From the IMG/VR virus record IMGVR_UViG_3300029867_000012: a stretch of 46,841 bases of DNA; one strand, written 5' to 3'. The notes below the pieces were generated by a model. That model made no database searches and was not told the DNA's origin. It saw only the letters and a list, made by a program, of their open reading frames with translations. The translations under genes were made by a program, and so were the position numbers. Positions 3,094 to 19,771 of this stretch are shown here, piece by piece. Each line of letters begins with the position of its first letter. The stretch's first letter is position 1. The DNA comes from a virus.

Positions 3094-3620
3094 TTCTTTT
3101 TAAGAAAAGAGACCTTGAGCAATATACGGACAGCTTGGCAGCGTATTTGCCGGGCGGGATTTTGTTCGCTATCAAGTCGTTTCAAGATAGCAATTTTAGA
3201 AAGTTGCTCAGGGGGTTCGCGGGTGAGTTATTCCGCAGTAATGGATTGTTAATCGAATATAGCGAGGAAGTCCTGCCTGATACCACAAACAAGTTTTTAG
3301 GTGAATGGGAGTCTTCGCTAGGATTGTCGCCAGGGTCTGGCGCTACGAACGAAGACCGTCGGCGCGATATCCTTGTTAGACTTGCTTCCTCTGGCGTACA
3401 AACCTCGCAGGATTTTATAGATTTAGCAGCTATTTTTGGAATTCCGGTTACTGTTACAGGGATCACATACACAATTACGGTGGGTGTTTCTATTCCCATT
3501 GCCGAAACATTCCCGCTAGAATTTGAAATAAATTTCGGAAGTGCTGAGATAGAATTATTACGTGGGCTTTTTGAAAACCTAATCCCTGCTAACTGTGAGT
3601 TAGTGATAGTACAAGTTTAA
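3090..3620 (+). CDS. Tail/baseplate protein, Mu gp48 / P2 gpI-like (DUF2313-like)
   Basis: 176 aa. 'FLGEWESSLGL...NEDRRRDILVRLAS' resembles the gpI/YmfQ family. ATGA overlap with the J-like gene. Confidence 0.6.
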   Translation: MILFKKRDLEQYTDSLAAYLPGGILFAIKSFQDSNFRKLLRGFAGELFRSNGLLIEYSEEVLPDTTNKFLGEWESSLGLSPGSGATNEDRRRDILVRLASSGVQTSQDFIDLAAIFGIPVTVTGITYTITVGVSIPIAETFPLEFEINFGSAEIELLRGLFENLIPANCELVIVQV

Positions 3621-14087: not shown

Positions 14088-14209
14088 AGCTAAAATCCTT
14101 ATTTTCTCTCTCACATCCACAACCATAGCCATAAATAAAATTTAACGATCTAACCCCACAATCAATCCCATTTATAGCGGCGAAATAACCACCTAACCAC
14201 TCTATAAAT

Positions 14210-14596
14210 TCACACATAGATAACGCTCCTATAATTATTATCATCACGTAGCCGACTGGTAAAAAAATCAGTGATTTTAGGTTTTAGAATTTCCTGATTT
14301 TGGGATACGAAAAGACTAAACGCGCCCACTGATATCGATTCTTTTTCGCGCTTATCCAGCTCTAATTCCATAATTTTGTCTGCAAACTCAATAATCATGT
14401 CTTTATTTTCGCACCCAATTATAGCCTCTGCGTCACTAAGAACAGCGCTAACAAATGGGCAATCATGATGCTCCATATCGTCTAGCTTGAGACACACTGC
14501 GTCTAATCCCTCGCCTCTATGCCACTCACACGAGCTACATTCTGCTCGATTGGCAAACGCTGCGTCGTGTATGTCGTAAAGGTCTATGTATTTCAT
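14210..14596 (-). CDS. Hypothetical protein, first gene of early - block
   Basis: Start set at 14596 (MKYIDLY). The track start at 14659 lies upstream of the predicted promoter -10. Confidence 0.55.
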   Translation of the reverse strand: MKYIDLYDIHDAAFANRAECSSCEWHRGEGLDAVCLKLDDMEHHDCPFVSAVLSDAEAIIGCENKDMIIEFADKIMELELDKREKESISVGAFSLFVSQNQEILKPKITDFFTSRLRDDNNYRSVIYV

Positions 14597-14627
14597 TTGT
14601 CTTCTCGTTAATTGATTCGATGGATCT

Positions 14628-14711
14628 AATTTAGCAATAGTTAACATGACTGTCAACATATATTTACAAGAAAGTATAATAGTTGACTTATACTAACTCG
14701 TGTATTATTGT
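14628..14711. promoter_or_regulatory. Back-to-back divergent sigma70-like promoters
   Basis: On the - strand: TTGACA (14651-56), 17 nt, TAAATT (14628-33). On the + strand: TTGACT (14683-88), 17 nt, TATTGT (14706-11). A third GTTGAC lies at 14731-38. Confidence 0.5.
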
Positions 14712-14742
14712 CTAATCTCAAAATCAATAAAGAGTCAACATA

Positions 14743-14946
14743 ATGAGTGAAGAAAGAGCGTTTTTGACGGCAAAGCAGGCTGCAATTTACCTGGGTTACT
14801 CTCCAGGGACACTAAGAATAGGCAGGTCTACTGGAGTTCTTGCAGGTAGAGACGCACCAAAGTACTCAAAGCTAGGCAAGAGCAAAACATCACCAGTGCG
14901 ATACGAAAAAGAAGCGCTTGACAGGTGGATAAAGGAAGCTGAATAG
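14743..14946 (+). CDS. Small helix-turn-helix DNA-binding protein (AlpA/excisionase-type HTH)
   Basis: 67 aa. 'LTAKQAAIYLGYSPGTLRIGRSTG' has an HTH pattern. First gene of the + early block. No integrase is present in the genome. Confidence 0.55.
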   Translation: MSEERAFLTAKQAAIYLGYSPGTLRIGRSTGVLAGRDAPKYSKLGKSKTSPVRYEKEALDRWIKEAE

Positions 14947-14960
14947 CTAAAGGGGAAATC

Positions 14961-15872
14961 ATGGCAGCTTTACCTTATATGCAGCTATATGTGGCCGATT
15001 ACATCGCTGATACGTTCCATTTAACGACGGAGGAGAACGGAGCTTACTTGCTGCTAATGATGAATTATTGGCAAACAGGCAAACCGATTCCTAGGAAGCG
15101 TTTAGCTGGCGTTGCACGCTTGTCTAACGAACGTTGGACGGACGTTGAGGAAGTGTTGAGTGAATTTTTCAATGTGACTGAAACACACTGGCAACATGAC
15201 CGAATTGACCGTGATCTTGAGTTCGTTTTAAGCAAATCTATTAGTTCTTCAAAAGGTGGAAAAGCGTCAGCAGCGGCCAGAAAGCGTAAAAAAGAACAGG
15301 AATCCAACGAAAAACCAACGAACGTTAAACAGACGTTGGGCGAACGTTTAGCTAGTGTTGCAACGGAAAAGGAACGAGACTCTAACCATAAAGATAAAGA
15401 TAAAGATAAAGATAAAGATAAAGATAAAGATAAAGATAAAGATAAAGATAAAGATACAAAAGCATTGTCGAGCAAGCCCGACATACCGGTTTCTGATGAT
15501 GTTCAGGAAATATTTAATCATTGGGTTTACAGAATGGGCAAAACCGATCAAACAAAACTCACTAAAAAACGAAAATCTAAAATCATTGACAGACTCAAAG
15601 ATGGCTACACGGTTGATTATATTAAATCGGCTATCGATGGTTGCGCTAAATCGCCGCATCATATGGGCCAAAATGACCAGGGAACGGTGTATGACGATAT
15701 TGAGCTAATTTGCCGAGAGAGCACGAAAATGGAAAATTTCGCGGACAACATAGCAAAAATAACCCCAGCGGATCCCAGACAACCGGAAACCATTGCCCAG
15801 TTTCAGCAACGATCAATGCGGGCAGCCCAGGACGTTATTGACTCAGGATTTTTAGACGACCTACCGGATTAA
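14961..15872 (+). CDS. Replication initiator-type protein: DUF1376 (YdaU-like) N-domain, (Lys-Asp)11 linker, phage conserved C-terminal domain
   Basis: 'LPYMQLYVADYIADTFHLTTEENGAYLLLMMNYW' matches the DUF1376 signature. 'FNHWVYRMGK...RLKDGYTVDYIKSAIDG' resembles the Phg_2220_C-type domain. Confidence 0.7.
   Translation: MAALPYMQLYVADYIADTFHLTTEENGAYLLLMMNYWQTGKPIPRKRLAGVARLSNERWTDVEEVLSEFFNVTETHWQHDRIDRDLEFVLSKSISSSKGGKASAAARKRKKEQESNEKPTNVKQTLGERLASVATEKERDSNHKDKDKDKDKDKDKDKDKDKDKDTKALSSKPDIPVSDDVQEIFNHWVYRMGKTDQTKLTKKRKSKIIDRLKDGYTVDYIKSAIDGCAKSPHHMGQNDQGTVYDDIELICRESTKMENFADNIAKITPADPRQPETIAQFQQRSMRAAQDVIDSGFLDDLPD
15390..15455. repeat. (AAAGAT)11 perfect hexanucleotide microsatellite, in frame (KD x11)
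   Basis: Counted directly as 11 uninterrupted copies. Confidence 0.95.
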
Positions 15873-15875
15873 ATT

Positions 15876-16520
15876 ATGAATAAAAATGATTTCCAGCAAT
15901 TCAGCGCAGTCTGGGCGGCAACATGCGAGGTCGTGGGCAAAGTGCCAAGCTCCGCCGCTATTGGAATGGTGTTTAGATCTCTAATGAGTTACGAGCTCGA
16001 TGATGTTCGCAGAGCGCTAGATGCGCACATGAGAAACCCTGACGGCGGACAGTTTGCGCCAAAACCGGCTGATGTGATTCGCTACATCGACGGCGATACA
16101 GCTAGCAGAGCTTTGCAGGCGTGGTCTAAAGTCGTGGCCGAGATATCTAGTACGGGATCCTATCAAACGGTTGTTTTTGATGAGCCGCAAATAATGGCCG
16201 TGATCGAGGGGATGGGTGGCTGGATAACAATCTGTGAAGTGACCGAAAAGGAATTGCCGTTTATTCGGAATGAGTTTGTGACCCGGTACAAGGGTTTTTT
16301 AAACTCAAAACTTGAGCGCTGGCCGAAAAAATTAATCGGCATCACTGAGGCCCACAATCATCAGCACGTCAACGCTAAAATTCCAGAACCAATCCTACTG
16401 GGTGACCACAAGAAAGCGCTAGCGGTGTTCCAGGGTGGCGGTGACAAGCCCCGGCTATCAACTCCGCTAAGTCAGGCCCTAGCGAAAATCGATACAAAAT
16501 TGATAGGCGGCAAAACGTGA
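15876..16520 (+). CDS. Hypothetical protein of replication module
   Basis: 214 aa. Lies 4 nt after the initiator gene and has an ATGA-type overlap with the next gene. Confidence 0.7.
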   Translation: MNKNDFQQFSAVWAATCEVVGKVPSSAAIGMVFRSLMSYELDDVRRALDAHMRNPDGGQFAPKPADVIRYIDGDTASRALQAWSKVVAEISSTGSYQTVVFDEPQIMAVIEGMGGWITICEVTEKELPFIRNEFVTRYKGFLNSKLERWPKKLIGITEAHNHQHVNAKIPEPILLGDHKKALAVFQGGGDKPRLSTPLSQALAKIDTKLIGGKT

Positions 16521-16990
16521 AAGATTTTCATTTGAGTATTGATAATTTACCAGCGTTAATTAATTCGCTACAGGACGAGCTGAAAGAATCGCCGAATCTA
16601 ATCATCAATTCGAGCGATGCTAGCAACACTGGAAAATGGGGCATGGCAAGACTTTGGCGGTCCTGGATGAGCACCACAGCCGATTTTATGGCAAAAAACG
16701 GGGCGACAATGCCGCTGATGATCGACGTGGCCGGAAACAACTACGGAAAGCGAGAATTTAACAGCGATGACGCACACGCCTTATTTGCTTCACACTGGCT
16801 TGGAACGGATAACCAAGGGGTAAGGTTAAGTTGGAGCAGAAAAGGCCGCGACGGGATGCGTGCAGCGTCCAAAGGTGAAAGATTCGACGCTCTTCGGCGT
16901 CATGAGGCATGGGCGATAGAAAAAGGCATCATTTTGATAAATCCGAGAGATTCAGAGTATTTCAAAATAGCAGAGGAGCAAGGTTATTGA
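16517..16990 (+). CDS. NinB/Orf-like recombination mediator (tentative)
   Basis: 157 aa. The layout and motifs 'ARLWRSWMSTTADFM' and 'ERFDALRRHEAWAIEKGI' resemble lambda NinB as recalled from memory. Confidence 0.4.
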   Translation: MKDFHLSIDNLPALINSLQDELKESPNLIINSSDASNTGKWGMARLWRSWMSTTADFMAKNGATMPLMIDVAGNNYGKREFNSDDAHALFASHWLGTDNQGVRLSWSRKGRDGMRAASKGERFDALRRHEAWAIEKGIILINPRDSEYFKIAEEQGY

Positions 16991-17025
16991 GGATTGAGGG
17001 ACCTTATCCGCAAGAACTGATAAAT

Positions 17026-17226
17026 ATGGACCCATACCCCAAGTTTTATTACTGCAAATTGGGTGTGAGTGATCGTGATTGGATACTGTCTAGAATAGCA
17101 GTAATTCCGAAAGATAAAAAACAGGAGGTTTCAAACCATTATACAAAACTATTTTTAAGTAAAAAGTCTTCGGCGAGAAAAGATGCTAACACTTATTTAA
17201 ATAACGAAGCTAAAAAATATAGGTAA
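17026..17226 (+). CDS. Hypothetical protein
   Basis: First ATG in the ORF. An alternative TTG at 16987 overlaps the upstream stop (TTGA). Confidence 0.55.
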   Translation: MDPYPKFYYCKLGVSDRDWILSRIAVIPKDKKQEVSNHYTKLFLSKKSSARKDANTYLNNEAKKYR

Positions 17227-17487
17227 ATGAAAATGAACACCGCAAAGATATATCATGACAGCGAAGGCAATGATTGCACTATTTTCCAAGCCGTTAAGCG
17301 CGAGCCTGAATGGGCAGCTACACGCATTCAAGTCGGGGAAAAAGCGCTAGAAAATGTAGCGAGGCTTGAAGGAATGTTAATAAAAAAGCTGGATTTAATA
17401 AAGTGCGGAATAAGCGCTAATTATTCCGGTGATCCATGCAAAAGCCAACTTTATACAGAAGCAACTGATCTATTAAAAGAAATATAA
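17227..17487 (+). CDS. Hypothetical protein ('EPEWAATRIQ' small phage protein)
   Basis: 86 aa. Ends at TAA 17485-87, in frame with the nuclease ORF that follows. Confidence 0.65.
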   Translation: MKMNTAKIYHDSEGNDCTIFQAVKREPEWAATRIQVGEKALENVARLEGMLIKKLDLIKCGISANYSGDPCKSQLYTEATDLLKEI

Positions 17488-17499
17488 CTAGAGATATTA

Positions 17500-17793
17500 A
17501 TTATCAGTAAATACCGAAGGGCTGCAAGAGTAGACGCAAACCAATCAGACATTATTGATGCGCTCAGGGCGATTCCTGGCGTGTCAGTAGAGCCTGGGCA
17601 TGATGATATTTTAGTGGGCTATAAAGGAAATACTTTTTGGTTTGAAATTAAAGAGCCGTCTACTGTAAGCCCTGTAACTGGAGAGGTAAGGCCTAGCGAA
17701 ATAAAGCCCAGTCAAAAAAAACTCAAGGCGGAATGGGATGGCCACTATCAAATTGTTTGGGATATTGATCAAATTATTCAGGCGATAATGTGA
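17500..17793 (+). CDS. PD-(D/E)XK nuclease (VRR-NUC / resolvase-like), start codon unresolved
   Basis: 'RVDANQSDIIDALRAIPG...DDILVGYKGNTFWFEIK' has the D...E-x-K core. The frame is open from 17488 but the first canonical start is GTG 17581, after the conserved N-terminus. ATT 17500 is given as a provisional start. Confidence 0.45.
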   Translation: MISKYRRAARVDANQSDIIDALRAIPGVSVEPGHDDILVGYKGNTFWFEIKEPSTVSPVTGEVRPSEIKPSQKKLKAEWDGHYQIVWDIDQIIQAIM

Positions 17794-18089
17794 AGGGCAG
17801 GGCGCCCACAGCGGAAGAAAAGGAATGGATGGGCGCAATATGCGATTTAGGCTGTATCGTGTGCTTGTTGGAGCTTGATACATGGACAGAGTGTTGCCCG
17901 CATCACATGGACGGAAAAACAAAACTAGGGGCGCACCTAAAAACAATCGGCCTATGCGGTAGGCATCATCAAATAACCGGGCCGGGTTATAAATCGCGCC
18001 ATGGCGATGGCAAATATCAATTCGAGGAGAGACACGGCACGGAGGAATATCTTTTAAATAAAACCAAAGCGCTACTAAACAATGCTTGA
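17790..18089 (+). CDS. Ref-family (P1 Ref-like) HNH recombination-enhancement nuclease
   Basis: 'GRAPTAEEKEWMGAICDLGCIVC...CPHHMDGKT...GLCGRHHQ...SRHG...FEERHGTEEYLL' matches the Ref-family pattern as I recall it. Confidence 0.7.
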   Translation: MKGRAPTAEEKEWMGAICDLGCIVCLLELDTWTECCPHHMDGKTKLGAHLKTIGLCGRHHQITGPGYKSRHGDGKYQFEERHGTEEYLLNKTKALLNNA

Positions 18090-18114
18090 CATTATGACGC
18101 TAGTGTCATATATT
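18086..18114 (+). promoter_or_regulatory. Near-consensus sigma70 promoter TTGACA-17-TATATT with palindrome in spacer
   Basis: Read directly. The spacer contains TATGAC-gctagt-GTCATA. The -35 box overlaps the stop of the Ref-like gene. Confidence 0.6.
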
Positions 18115-18170
18115 TATATTTCAAGTTATACAAAATAACATTTAACATTTAACAATTAAAGGACAAAACA

Positions 18171-18464
18171 ATGAAGCTCGCAGACGCACTATTAAGACGT
18201 AAAGAATTACAGGAAAAGGTAAATCAGGTTCGAGCTGTAAAGGATAAAGATTTGTTTGAAATGAGATTTGAGCGAAAACAGATCAATGAAAATATTGATG
18301 ACATTGCAGCACAGGTGCCTAAATGTAGCCTTAACCAGGTAACGGCAGAATATGACTATTACGCTAACAAATTGAGATTAATCGATGGTGCTATCCAGCA
18401 GTTGAACTGGACCACAGACATATCAGTCAATCCTAAGGTTTGGGTAGATTTCGCGGACAAGTAA
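18171..18464 (+). CDS. Helical protein, short DIP1984-family-like (tentative)
   Basis: 97 aa. 'MKLADALLRRKELQEKVNQVR' and 'IDGAIQQLNWTTDI' resemble the two ends of DIP1984-family proteins. AAAGGA SD upstream. Confidence 0.35.
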   Translation: MKLADALLRRKELQEKVNQVRAVKDKDLFEMRFERKQINENIDDIAAQVPKCSLNQVTAEYDYYANKLRLIDGAIQQLNWTTDISVNPKVWVDFADK

Positions 18465-18606
18465 AAAGTTTTAGGTGTTCAAGGCGACTCGAAAAGGCTT
18501 GCTCCGTGCCTAAAACGGTCAGATGTTGCGCGACATCGTTGCCCTCGCTGAGAGGTTAAATCAGCATCCAGATGCTAATTGGAGTCATGAGCATGACGTT
18601 AAAATA

Positions 18607-18711
18607 CTCGACTAACTCCGAATACTGTAACAATTAACGCGTAATCATCCGAATATTAGAACCTCCGAATTTATAAGCCCGACTGTTATAAATCCGACTA
18701 ACCAACCGAGT
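18607..18711 (+). repeat. Array of 6-7 same-orientation CCGAMT-core direct repeats (iteron-like)
   Basis: CTCGACT 18607, TCCGAAT 18617, 18648 and 18664, CCCGACT 18678, TCCGACT 18693, ACCGAGT 18705. Confidence 0.6.
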
Positions 18712-18828
18712 GATTGAGCACCACCTATTTTATAGAGCTAATTAAAGACCATAAATGTCTATTTATTGAGATACCGATAGATATTTCAGAAAGAATTATG
18801 ATTAACAATTAACAATTAAGGAAAAAAA

Positions 18829-19140
18829 ATGGATATTAACGAACTAACATTAGGTCAAATAAAAGAAATTCAAAATATGGCGTATCAGATTCCTGAAGAT
18901 CACAAGGCGCATCTCGAATATCGTCAATATATTGGCGAACGCCCAACTATTTACGCGATGAACTATATTTATACGGGTGATTGTGTAGCGATTGTAGGTG
19001 ATTCTATTGTTTTTGAAAACGCAATGATTGTGTATAACACCGGTGACCACAAAACAGTTGATTGGTCCGATGCGGAGCAGATGCCCGGAAAATGGAGCGT
19101 GGCAATGCAATCAATTGAAAGCCACGGTATTTTCAAGTAA
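18829..19140 (+). CDS. Hypothetical protein
   Basis: 103 aa. AAGGA SD is preceded by AACAATT AACAATT. Confidence 0.7.
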   Translation: MDINELTLGQIKEIQNMAYQIPEDHKAHLEYRQYIGERPTIYAMNYIYTGDCVAIVGDSIVFENAMIVYNTGDHKTVDWSDAEQMPGKWSVAMQSIESHGIFK

Positions 19141-19164
19141 ACGAAGACTAAAGGGGGTCCAGCT

Positions 19165-19386
19165 GTGATGAAACGTAGCAAATTGGCACGGTCTTGGTCT
19201 AGGTCTAGTTCTGGGTCTTGGTCTTGGTCCAGATCTGGGTCTAGGTCTTGGTCCAGATCTGGGTCTAGGTCTTGGTCCAGGTCTGGGTCTGGGTCCAGAT
19301 CTGGGTCTTGGTCTCGGTCCAGGTCTGGGTCTGGGTCCAGGTCTGGGTCTGGGTCCAGGTCTGGGAGCGGTAAAGATGATGCGTAG
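19165..19386 (+). CDS. X-Ser dipeptide-repeat protein 1 (coding strand uncertain)
   Basis: AAGGGGG lies 7 nt before the GTG-ATG. A basic leader is followed by about 29 alternating (W/R/G/S)-Ser units. Co-oriented with flanking genes. Confidence 0.45.
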   Translation: MMKRSKLARSWSRSSSGSWSWSRSGSRSWSRSGSRSWSRSGSGSRSGSWSRSRSGSGSRSGSGSRSGSGKDDA

Positions 19387-19573
19387 GAATAAATTAAAAA
19401 GGTCCGGTTCTAGTTCTGGTTCTAGAACTAGGCAAAGGTCTAGTTCTGGGTCTAGTTCTGGGTCTTGGTCTTGGTCTTGGTCTTGGTCCAGATCTGGGTC
19501 AAGATCTGGGCCAAGTTCTAGAACTAGAAACAAGTCCAGATCTGGGTCCAGGTTTGTGTCTGGTAGCGGGTCT
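19190..19573. repeat. Two blocks of imperfect GGTCTN hexanucleotide repeats (19190-19365, 19401-19573)
   Basis: Read directly. Higher-order 18- and 24-nt units are present, and several frames on both strands are open through the blocks. Confidence 0.95.
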
Positions 19574-19591
19574 AATAATGCGTGGGAATAA
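19376..19591 (+). CDS. X-Ser dipeptide-repeat protein 2 (coding strand uncertain)
   Basis: GGGAG lies 8 nt before the ATG. The leader MMRRNKLKR is homologous to that of ORF1, and the start overlaps the ORF1 stop. Confidence 0.45.
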   Translation: MMRRNKLKRSGSSSGSRTRQRSSSGSSSGSWSWSWSWSRSGSRSGPSSRTRNKSRSGSRFVSGSGSNNAWE

Positions 19592-19594
19592 CAA

Positions 19595-19771
19595 ATGAAC
19601 TTAATGTGTAAGATTTTCGGCCACAAAAATAAATTGCTTTTTGACATGCCTACCGCATGCGTGAGGTGTGGTCAAGAGAGACCGGCAGTAAAACTAAAAC
19701 ACATTCCCCCGATGCCAAAAGTTAAGCAGCTTAAAAATGGCGATCGATGTGGTAAAATAAGATTCGATTAA
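19595..19771 (+). CDS. Small Cys-containing protein, 58 aa (below cutoff)
   Basis: The N-terminal MNLMCKIFGHK motif is reminiscent of DUF1660-type small prophage proteins, and CVRC is present. The SD is weak. Confidence 0.4.
   Translation: MNLMCKIFGHKNKLLFDMPTACVRCGQERPAVKLKHIPPMPKVKQLKNGDRCGKIRFD

Follow-up and report, generated by a model that had tools for sequence, protein, structure and literature searches.

A candidate structured noncoding RNA encoded with a DUF6847/DIP1984-like protein in an accessory cassette of phages

What occupies the largest gap in the genome of a temperate, lambdoid-style phage? The genome is the IMG/VR virus record IMGVR_UViG_3300029867_000012, a stretch of 46,841 nt that we call the window, and the gap lies at positions 18465-18828. 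An earlier note, made from the sequence alone, divided this segment into a cluster of palindromes (part 1, 18465-18600), an array of short direct repeats (part 2, 18607-18711) and an AT-rich tract (part 3, 18715-18828). It considered a replication origin, a protein-binding array and a structured RNA. We suggest that positions 18473-18722 on the + strand encode a member of a family of structured noncoding RNAs (ncRNAs), about 250-480 nt long, which is carried in an accessory cassette together with a DUF6847/DIP1984-like protein. We give this reading a rough probability of 0.78. The family is apparently undescribed as judged against Rfam 15; a 2023 catalogue of about 10,000 viral candidate RNAs was not part of that comparison.

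The gap and its relatives in other phages

The segment is 364 nt long and, as noted earlier, is the longest non-coding stretch of the window, counted as the largest gap without an open reading frame (ORF) of at least 40 amino acids on either strand; the next largest is 93 nt. It starts directly after the ORF of the DUF6847/DIP1984-like protein. The GC content of parts 1, 2 and 3 is 0.49, 0.38 and 0.25, respectively, which agrees with the AT-rich character ascribed to part 3. All palindromes quoted for part 1 were found in the sequence, and the cluster of same-strand repeats is real. Five copies of CCGAHT are located at 18618, 18649, 18665, 18679 and 18694, on the + strand only, and their density (5 per 100 nt) was reached by none of 200 shuffles of the window (maximum 3, mean 2.1). 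Genome-wide, TCCGAHT is at chance level, with 19 copies against 18.3 expected.

Relatives were gathered by searching public contigs with the small protein. This gave approximately 100 loci (labelled L and a number), 78 of them with distinct downstream regions. Nearly all have a noncoding layout in common, with CCGA-H-U motifs confined to the strand of the ORF. Clustering of every ORF showed that the protein gene is the sole universally linked gene of the RNA element: a DUF6847-like gene is present in 78 of 78 loci, and the next real ORF cluster in 12 of 78. Other neighbours vary, and include genes for polymerase A, YqaJ, RecT, SSB, RecA and a clamp loader. With a covariance model of the 5' core, 69 of 79 loci gave a single match each, without exception on the + strand, and the window scored 66.8 bits. 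A DNA pattern for the array only, searched against IMG/VR, gave 18 stretches, and all 11 of these that have enough flanking sequence adjoin the DUF6847-like ORF on the same strand. The order is reversed in L019 (2060-2345) and L031 (4690-4990), where the RNA comes before the ORF and a U-run precedes the ribosome binding site (RBS). In three loci the DUF6847-like ORF and the RNA are separated by 1-4 small ORFs.

Assignments of metagenome-assembled genomes among the genome-collection matches are Planctomycetota, Fluviicoccus, Hyphomicrobiaceae, Sansalvadorimonas, Chthoniobacterales, Ignavibacteriales and Latescibacterota. The loci span assignments to Gammaproteobacteria, Alphaproteobacteria, Planctomycetota, Verrucomicrobiota, Ignavibacteriales and Latescibacterota. 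Cultured carriers are Vibrio phage 1.264.O._10N.286.51.F2 and the Vibrio crassostreae phages PS32B.x and PS35B.x (Zobellviridae), in whose records the ORF is labelled 'hypothetical' and the gap is unannotated. The cassette is located in the early replication/recombination region in many unrelated phages. In L127 (3677-4236) and L128 (3603-4162), both Vibrio Zobellviridae, it lies between an SF4 helicase gene and two small genes, after which follows a gene for a protein of approximately 660 aa with an RNase H-like domain. In MG592629 these small genes are annotated as fragments of sigma-70, one of region 2 and one of region 3/4.

The predicted fold and its strand

Covariation among the relatives showed a predicted RNA fold that consists of a closing helix (P1a and P1b), an H-type pseudoknot (PK1), a hairpin (P2), a variable region and a further helix (P4). 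The positions of these elements in the window are listed in Table 1.

The arms of P1a were taken as the 9-14 nt 5' of a conserved GGCG and, beyond the array, the nucleotides 3' of a conserved GA. The two arms have no sequence in common between loci, yet they are complementary within each locus. When 40 arms were compared, the 3' arm of the same locus was the best partner in 33 cases and among the top three in 40 of 40. The mean duplex energy was -16.9 kcal/mol for self pairs and -6.5 kcal/mol for cross pairs (Mann-Whitney p = 3e-23). The inner helix P1b likewise covaries. A K-turn at the GGCG/GA loop was discarded (by inspection only), as strands of 4 x 2 nt do not fit a 3-nt bulge with tandem G.A pairs.

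Helix A of PK1 occurs in several compensatory types (AAGGC/GCCUU, AAGGU/ACCUU, AGAGU/ACUCU, AAGCA/UGCUU, AAGCG/CGCUU and AAGUG/CACUU), and helix B in 37 sequence types, nearly all fully complementary. There is zero spacer between the 5' strand of helix B and the 3' strand of helix A, L3 is AA in 44 of 64 cases, and the median score of PK1 is reached by 0.2% of shuffles. RNAalifold proposed that the ACC behind the last repeat pairs with the GG in AAGGC, which we rejected because the ACC is constant while helix A changes. In a MAFFT alignment helix B is 90% paired, compared to 33-51% in slid controls, with double changes at every pair. P2 is 94% paired against the same range in its slid controls, and double changes are seen at all six pairs. 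The tetraloop of P2 is self-complementary in 37 of 44 cases, where chance would give 1 in 16, and is found as GGCC, GCGC, UGCA, UCGA, CCGG, GAUC, GUAC, ACGU and AGCU.

The variable region is, in relatives, the insertion site of tRNAs and tRNA-like domains, and about 60% of members hold such a sequence. Assigned by sequence motifs only, 74 elements fall into 21 with a canonical tRNA, 11 with a T-arm, stem-loop and D-arm, 12 with a partial domain and 30 with none, the window included. The permuted domain, in which a T-arm is followed by a short stem-loop and a D-arm, is found in L105 at about 3425-3490 and also in L034, L035, L063, L071, L006, L016, L095, L068, L076 and L087. ARAGORN called tRNAs in 22 of 63 elements, all on the + strand and mostly for Ile, Gln, Asn, Arg, Thr and Lys, and on the window found no tmRNA and no tRNA. 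Its calls within elements include one 'tRNA-Stop' (a possible suppressor) and one tRNA of undetermined identity. In the subfamily of the window the variable region forms two hairpins, P3 and P3b; the loop of P3b is 7 nt long (NNGCUAA). P4 possibly belongs to a second pseudoknot, PK2.

Under the full model, pairing reaches 95% in eight close relatives that lack a tRNA, and double changes are seen at 31 of 48 pairs; slid controls gave 26-40%. The minimum-free-energy fold of the window recovers P1a and P1b (z = -2.5).

The array lies 3' of P4 in a fixed register and has the consensus A-n-n-U-CCGA-H-U-R. The median is 4 CCGA per 97-nt array, compared to 0.3 in shuffles. A constant 77 nt separates the first motif from the last, with spacing classes of 8, 15-16, 30 and 38 nt, and the array of the window is poor in G (11 G in 89 nt). 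In one subfamily (L082, L096, L103, L097, L075 and L063) a hairpin is inserted at a fixed point of the array, after CCGAUUAA. Four other readings of the array were rejected. The TTGAC after the last repeat, read as a -35 box with activator sites in the array, consists of the P1b 3' strand together with the GA bulge and the beginning of the P1a 3' strand (P1a'). A templated or telomere-like use of CCGAAU would not fit a motif that is at chance elsewhere in the genome. The tRNAs are full-length, optional and of many identities, and integrase is not linked, which speaks against an attP with arm-type sites. Known type III antitoxin RNAs are tandem units of 34-45 nt; the element holds no such units and there was no PADLOC match.

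With this fold, several motifs pointed out in the earlier note take on a new place. The palindrome GATGT-TGCGCG-ACATC is the conserved, covarying hairpin P2. Other motifs belong to other structures: relatives assign CCUAAAAC to PK1 and place TCATGagCATGA in the tentative stem of PK2, and GUUUUAGG shares nucleotides with the 5' arm of the closing helix. Relatives lend no support to the pairing of GTTTTAGG with CCTAAAAC, nor to the stems CCTC/GAGG and GCATC/GATGC; the conserved alternatives to the two stems are P3 (GCUGA/UCAGC) and P3b (UCCAG/UUGGA, loop AUGCUAA). Seven repeats had been counted, and five are CCGAHT copies. The first, CTCGACT at 18607, consists of the P4 3' strand and linker, and the last, ACCGAGT at 18705, overlaps the P1b 3' strand. 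Relatives do not conserve the extension of this outer pair to CGACTAAC. A structured RNA had been proposed for part 1 alone, and the predicted RNA spans parts 1 and 2 together.

Helix B and P2 contain 39 G.U pairs and 4 A.C pairs, an excess which identifies the + strand as the folded strand. P1 is also more stable on the + strand than on its complement (Wilcoxon p = 2.5e-9). A U-run (at least 4 U, within 16 nt of P1a') is present in at least 40% of loci, compared to 8% of control windows; the 40% is a lower bound because some P1 helices reach beyond the span examined. Taken together, the U-run, the co-oriented tRNAs, the upstream promoter and the strand asymmetry point to a transcript of the + strand.

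Table 1. Positions in the window of the predicted RNA elements and of the cassette that carries them.
Feature	Position	Strand	Remarks
P1a 5' strand GGUGUUCAA	18474-18482	+	pairs with 18714-18722
GGCG internal loop, conserved	18483-18486	+	faces GA 18712-18713
P1b 5' strand ACUCG	18487-18491	+	pairs with 18707-18711
PK1, H-type pseudoknot	18494-18518	+	helix A 18495-18498/18508-18511
PK1 helix B	CCGU 18504-18507/ACGG 18515-18518	+	L1 UUGCU 18499-18503; A-rich L3 18512-18514
P2 hairpin	18522-18537	+	6 bp; self-complementary tetraloop GCGC 18528-18531
Variable region	18538-18583	+	P3 18547-18551/18561-18565; P3b 18567-18571/18579-18583, loop AUGCUAA
P4/tentative PK2	18584-18610	+	S1 GUCA 18584-18587/UGAC 18594-18597; A-rich L3 GUUAAAAUA
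PK2 S2 (= P4)	UGAG 18588-18591/CUCG 18607-18610	+	covaries in subfamily
Linker ACUAACU and G-poor array of five CCGA-H-U	18611-18703	+	near-invariant end CCGACUAACC; predicted unpaired
P1b 3' strand CGAGU	18707-18711	+	pairs with 18487-18491
P1a 3' strand UUGAGCACC	18714-18722	+	U-run 18728-18731 after strand
AT-rich spacer outside the fold	18723-18828	+	includes duplicated leader/RBS of gene 18829
Sigma-70-like promoter	18086-18114	+	TTGACA-17-TATATT, 11/12 consensus; left cassette edge
Accessory indel cassette (ORF, RNA, AT-rich spacer)	18092-18804	+	absent from L001 and L002
DUF6847/DIP1984-like protein, 97 aa	18171-18464	+	invariant motifs KLAEALLRRKELQ and D..IQQ.NW

The cassette and its partner protein

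The phage has no DNA similarity to deposited phages. Based on position and orientation alone, a cI/cro-like divergent pair is located at 14210-14946. Downstream of it are genes for an O-like/DUF1376 initiator (14961), a DUF6475 protein, a NinB-like protein and a Ref-like nuclease.

The window has two close siblings in IMG/VR, the contigs L001 and L002. They are metagenomic contigs from two samples, with approximately 99% identity to window 14127-18091, and their similarity resumes at 18805. The 713 bp between these points (18092-18804) are replaced by 28 bp in both. The missing block comprises the promoter-like site, the 97-aa ORF, the RNA element and most of the AT-rich tract, and in the siblings a similar promoter is located directly ahead of the homologue of gene 18829. 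At the level of genome comparison, these near-identical siblings showed that the cassette is dispensable. Since the block is missing from them, we regard it as an accessory, moron-like cassette and not as an origin. Two copies of the leader/RBS TAACAATTAA(A)GGA..AAAATG are present, one near each end of the cassette (about 18139-18173 and 18803-18831), which suggests that modules are exchanged via recombination at gene starts.

Beyond the gap, hexanucleotide tandem repeats (GGTCTN)n are found at 19190-19365 and 19409-19521, and give spurious miRNA-like Rfam matches. A minus-strand ORF (19111-19647) over these repeats encodes PRPRPG-type repeats and is overlapped by short + strand ORFs. Repeats of a similar type are also present downstream of the cassette in L017.

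The small protein scores 30.6 bits against Pfam DUF6847 (PF20935, cut-off 27), where it covers only profile positions 66-141 of 141, the C-terminal half. It matches the DIP1984 family weakly (NCBIfam NF038048, 31.3 bits, cut-off 70), and its match to PDB 3KDQ has E = 1.7. Judged by these profiles, the phage protein is a short subfamily of the DUF6847/DIP1984 fold. Both have an N-terminal LAEAL..R..LQ helix and a C-terminal D..IQ..NW helix; the phage form differs in its length of approximately 100 aa, its partial coverage of the profile and its score below the NCBIfam cut-off. No match to the protein was found in PHROGs or PADLOC, and we found no published study on the function of DUF6847 or DIP1984. 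At the locus of a full-length bacterial relative from Enterococcus (L027) the 5'-core model of the RNA gave no match.

Approximately 40 proteins of our library are tandem duplications of the unit of about 100 aa. One of these, P0121 (209 aa; L129, 1501-2560), has the same RNA downstream, and this copy includes a tRNA, the array and P1a' + U6. A search for domain fusions gave tandem duplications only, plus a single fusion to ribosomal protein L1. In this protein, P0231, the N-terminal 53 aa of the family are joined to the domain of L1, which is an RNA-binding protein; it is probably a chimeric gene call.

Possible roles, alternatives and known systems

We propose the following sequence of events. 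The cassette would be transcribed from its own promoter, and the transcript would tend to end at the U-run after P1. The DUF6847 protein, which is probably a dimer or oligomer because tandem-fused forms exist, would bind the RNA, with the G-poor array of 4-7 CCGA-H-U sites as its platform. The self-complementary loop of P2 would join two RNAs by a kissing interaction. Early in infection, the resulting ribonucleoprotein (RNP) would work in trans and serve, much like a Y RNA, as a scaffold or decoy for a host factor that handles tRNA or other RNA; this is the weakest step. Only tentatively, and with more doubt than belief, do we picture a dimeric or higher-order RNP, paired through the P2 loop and with protein dimers on the array, as a Y-RNA-like mimic of tRNA or a decoy that captures a host factor of tRNA handling, RNA repair or defence.

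Several points weigh against a structured RNA and against the proposed RNP. A single-stranded DNA (ssDNA) fold of the + strand would yield identical covariation, and it is from sequence that we infer the RNA nature. The palindrome of P2 could equally be read as a dyad at the DNA level. The controls for covariation correct only partly for relatedness among the sequences. In PK2, stem S1 was read by eye and is weak, with 19% of shuffles reaching the observed median in a permissive test; P4 of the window was likewise placed by eye, as the window row is mis-aligned in the subfamily alignment. The window copy has no tRNA-like module, so a tRNA-related role cannot depend on it. Binding of the protein to the RNA we infer from their linkage alone. 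The AlphaFold model of the protein (helix, beta-hairpin, helix) is poor, with a pLDDT of 65, and Foldseek gave no significant structural match to it, the best match in shape being prefoldin beta.

The repeat array may well bind a protein, and the adjacent DUF6847 protein on RNA is a more likely candidate than ParB or helix-turn-helix proteins on DNA. It should be noted that the repeats are direct and not palindromic, and that the ParB-methyltransferase gene (24193) is 5.4 kb away and unlinked in relatives, which argues against the ParB array that had been proposed.

The alternative that fares best is a purely cis-acting untranslated region (UTR). In brief, it would stabilise, terminate or autoregulate the DUF6847 mRNA, the protein would bind its own message, and the RNA would have no role in trans. 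The element always adjoins the ORF, usually as a 3' UTR and in L019 and L031 as a 5' leader that ends before the RBS, and the enrichment of U-runs after P1 would suit such a role as well. However, 250-480 nt with pseudoknot(s), an array in fixed register and a dimerisation-type loop exceed what known autoregulatory operators need. The RNA is found on either side of the ORF, also with 1-4 ORFs in between, and tRNA or tRNA-like modules are embedded in more than half of its members. Both its sequence and its structure are conserved in phages assigned to several phyla. We therefore consider a role in cis only to be unlikely.

An ssDNA element is, in our opinion, somewhat less likely still. It might be a site for primosome assembly or single-strand initiation, an ssDNA promoter or a recombination site, to which DUF6847 would bind as DNA, with the P2 dyad forming a cruciform or serving as a protein site. 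In its favour, many replication and recombination genes lie nearby, the DNA of P2 is perfectly palindromic, and covariation with tolerance of G.T cannot by itself separate ssDNA from RNA. However, H-type pseudoknots with an A-rich L3 are typical of RNA, and every embedded tRNA gene has the orientation of the fold. P2 varies freely in sequence yet stays self-complementary, which argues against a sequence-specific protein site. The U-run after P1 and the cassette's own promoter directly upstream are also in favour of a transcript.

The replication origin was the textbook reading of the layout, with CCGAMT as iterons for the initiator and the AT-rich tract as unwinding element. Direct repeats do adjoin a tract of 25% GC, an O-like/DUF1376 initiator gene (14961-15872) does lie 3 kb upstream, and in many phages the element is found among replication and recombination genes. 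However, two siblings with approximately 99% flank identity lack the whole block, which is indirect evidence as both are metagenomic contigs. The repeats are enclosed by the covarying closing helix of a strand-specific fold. The same array occurs in neighbourhoods with O-like, SF4 helicase/DNA polymerase, polymerase A and Rad52 genes, that is, with unrelated replication genes, the one constant gene being that of DUF6847. Relatives do not conserve the AT-rich tract, and in them the P1 3' strand is followed by a gene or a U-run. An origin is thus very improbable; the structured RNA and the protein-binding array named beside it in the earlier note came closer. A small mobile element of the MITE type, with the P1a arms as terminal inverted repeats, is the least credible of all: inverted repeats flank the element and the cassette is polymorphic in presence, but the arms differ completely between loci while remaining complementary, with G.U pairs, unlike ends recognised by a transposase, the indel boundaries (18092 and 18804) lie far outside them and include the ORF, and clustering of ORFs from 78 loci linked no transposase.

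To our knowledge, large bacterial and phage RNAs of complex fold are rare, and those studied in the past have proved to be ribozymes, RNP scaffolds or unexpected assemblies. The candidate RNA is compact, with a minimum of about 250 nt, and has very strong covariation. Its link to the protein is the first functional lead for the DUF6847 family. If the decoy reading is true, the cassette would represent a new class of RNA-based module for host takeover or anti-defence across phages of many phyla. Its presence in the cultured Vibrio phages PS32B.x, PS35B.x and 1.264.O allows direct tests, and siblings that naturally carry or lack the cassette can be compared straight away. There is also a lesson for annotation, since an RNA gene can mimic the picture of iterons plus an AT-rich tract. 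Iteron origins such as lambda ori and those of plasmids likewise have short direct repeats in the same orientation, an AT-rich tract and replication genes nearby. The phage repeats differ in that they sit in a folded, strand-specific element, are dispensable in siblings and are tied to no initiator family.

The search of Rfam 15 that had been suggested for 18465-18600 was extended to 18465-18730, and gave no match at E <= 10 to any family, including GOLLD, ROOL, HEARO, tmRNA, RNase P and group I and II introns. The same search with 14 relatives found, within the element, only tRNAs and sub-threshold matches to YrlA (RF02553). The latter came from L016, L095 and L087, with 31-36 bits against a gathering threshold of 69, and cover model positions 23-85/89, the tRNA-like part. 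In YrlA the order is described as T, acceptor-like stem, D, and a motif GNCGAA is related to the Ro60 site GGUCCGA on vertebrate Y RNA (Chen et al. 2014, PMC4201824). Both are modular ncRNAs with their 5' and 3' ends paired in a stem, and 11 of 74 relatives have, as judged by sequence motifs, a permuted tRNA-like domain. Both also have a short single-stranded motif that contains CGA, UCCGA-H-U in the phage version, and an adjoining gene for a partner protein on the same strand. The partner differs: it is the DUF6847 protein of approximately 100 aa and not Ro60/Rsr, and no TROVE (Ro60/Rsr) domain was found in the scanned large ORFs of the window or in the called neighbour genes, and the clustering of ORFs showed no cluster of large genes that recurs beside the element. 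The phage RNA is 2-4 times larger, with PK1, P2 and P4 having no counterpart in Y RNA; the stretch between the stop codon of the ORF and the end of the final repeat measures 220-481 nt, compared to a Y RNA of 80-130 nt with one stem and one large internal loop. Its motif occurs in 4-7 copies in the 3' half, whereas the motif of YrlA is single and near the 5' end, and its tRNA-like module is optional and absent in the window. On the basis of these predicted structures, the resemblance in design to YrlA (closing stem, tRNA-like module, CGA motif) is real, but the defining features fail.

GOLLD and ROOL are about 600-800 nt long and lie in phages and prophages, often beside tRNAs or with an embedded tRNA. 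In a cryo-EM report, GOLLD, ROOL and OLE are said to form homo-oligomeric complexes, and GOLLD and ROOL are described as RNA-only (PMC12286853). GOLLD and ROOL, like the phage RNA, are large orphan ncRNAs with complex folds, and the self-complementary loop of P2 suggests homo-oligomers for the phage RNA as well. The phage RNA differs from GOLLD and ROOL in that it is smaller, at 250-480 nt, in that it matches neither in sequence nor in structure in Rfam, and in that it has an obligatorily linked protein gene.

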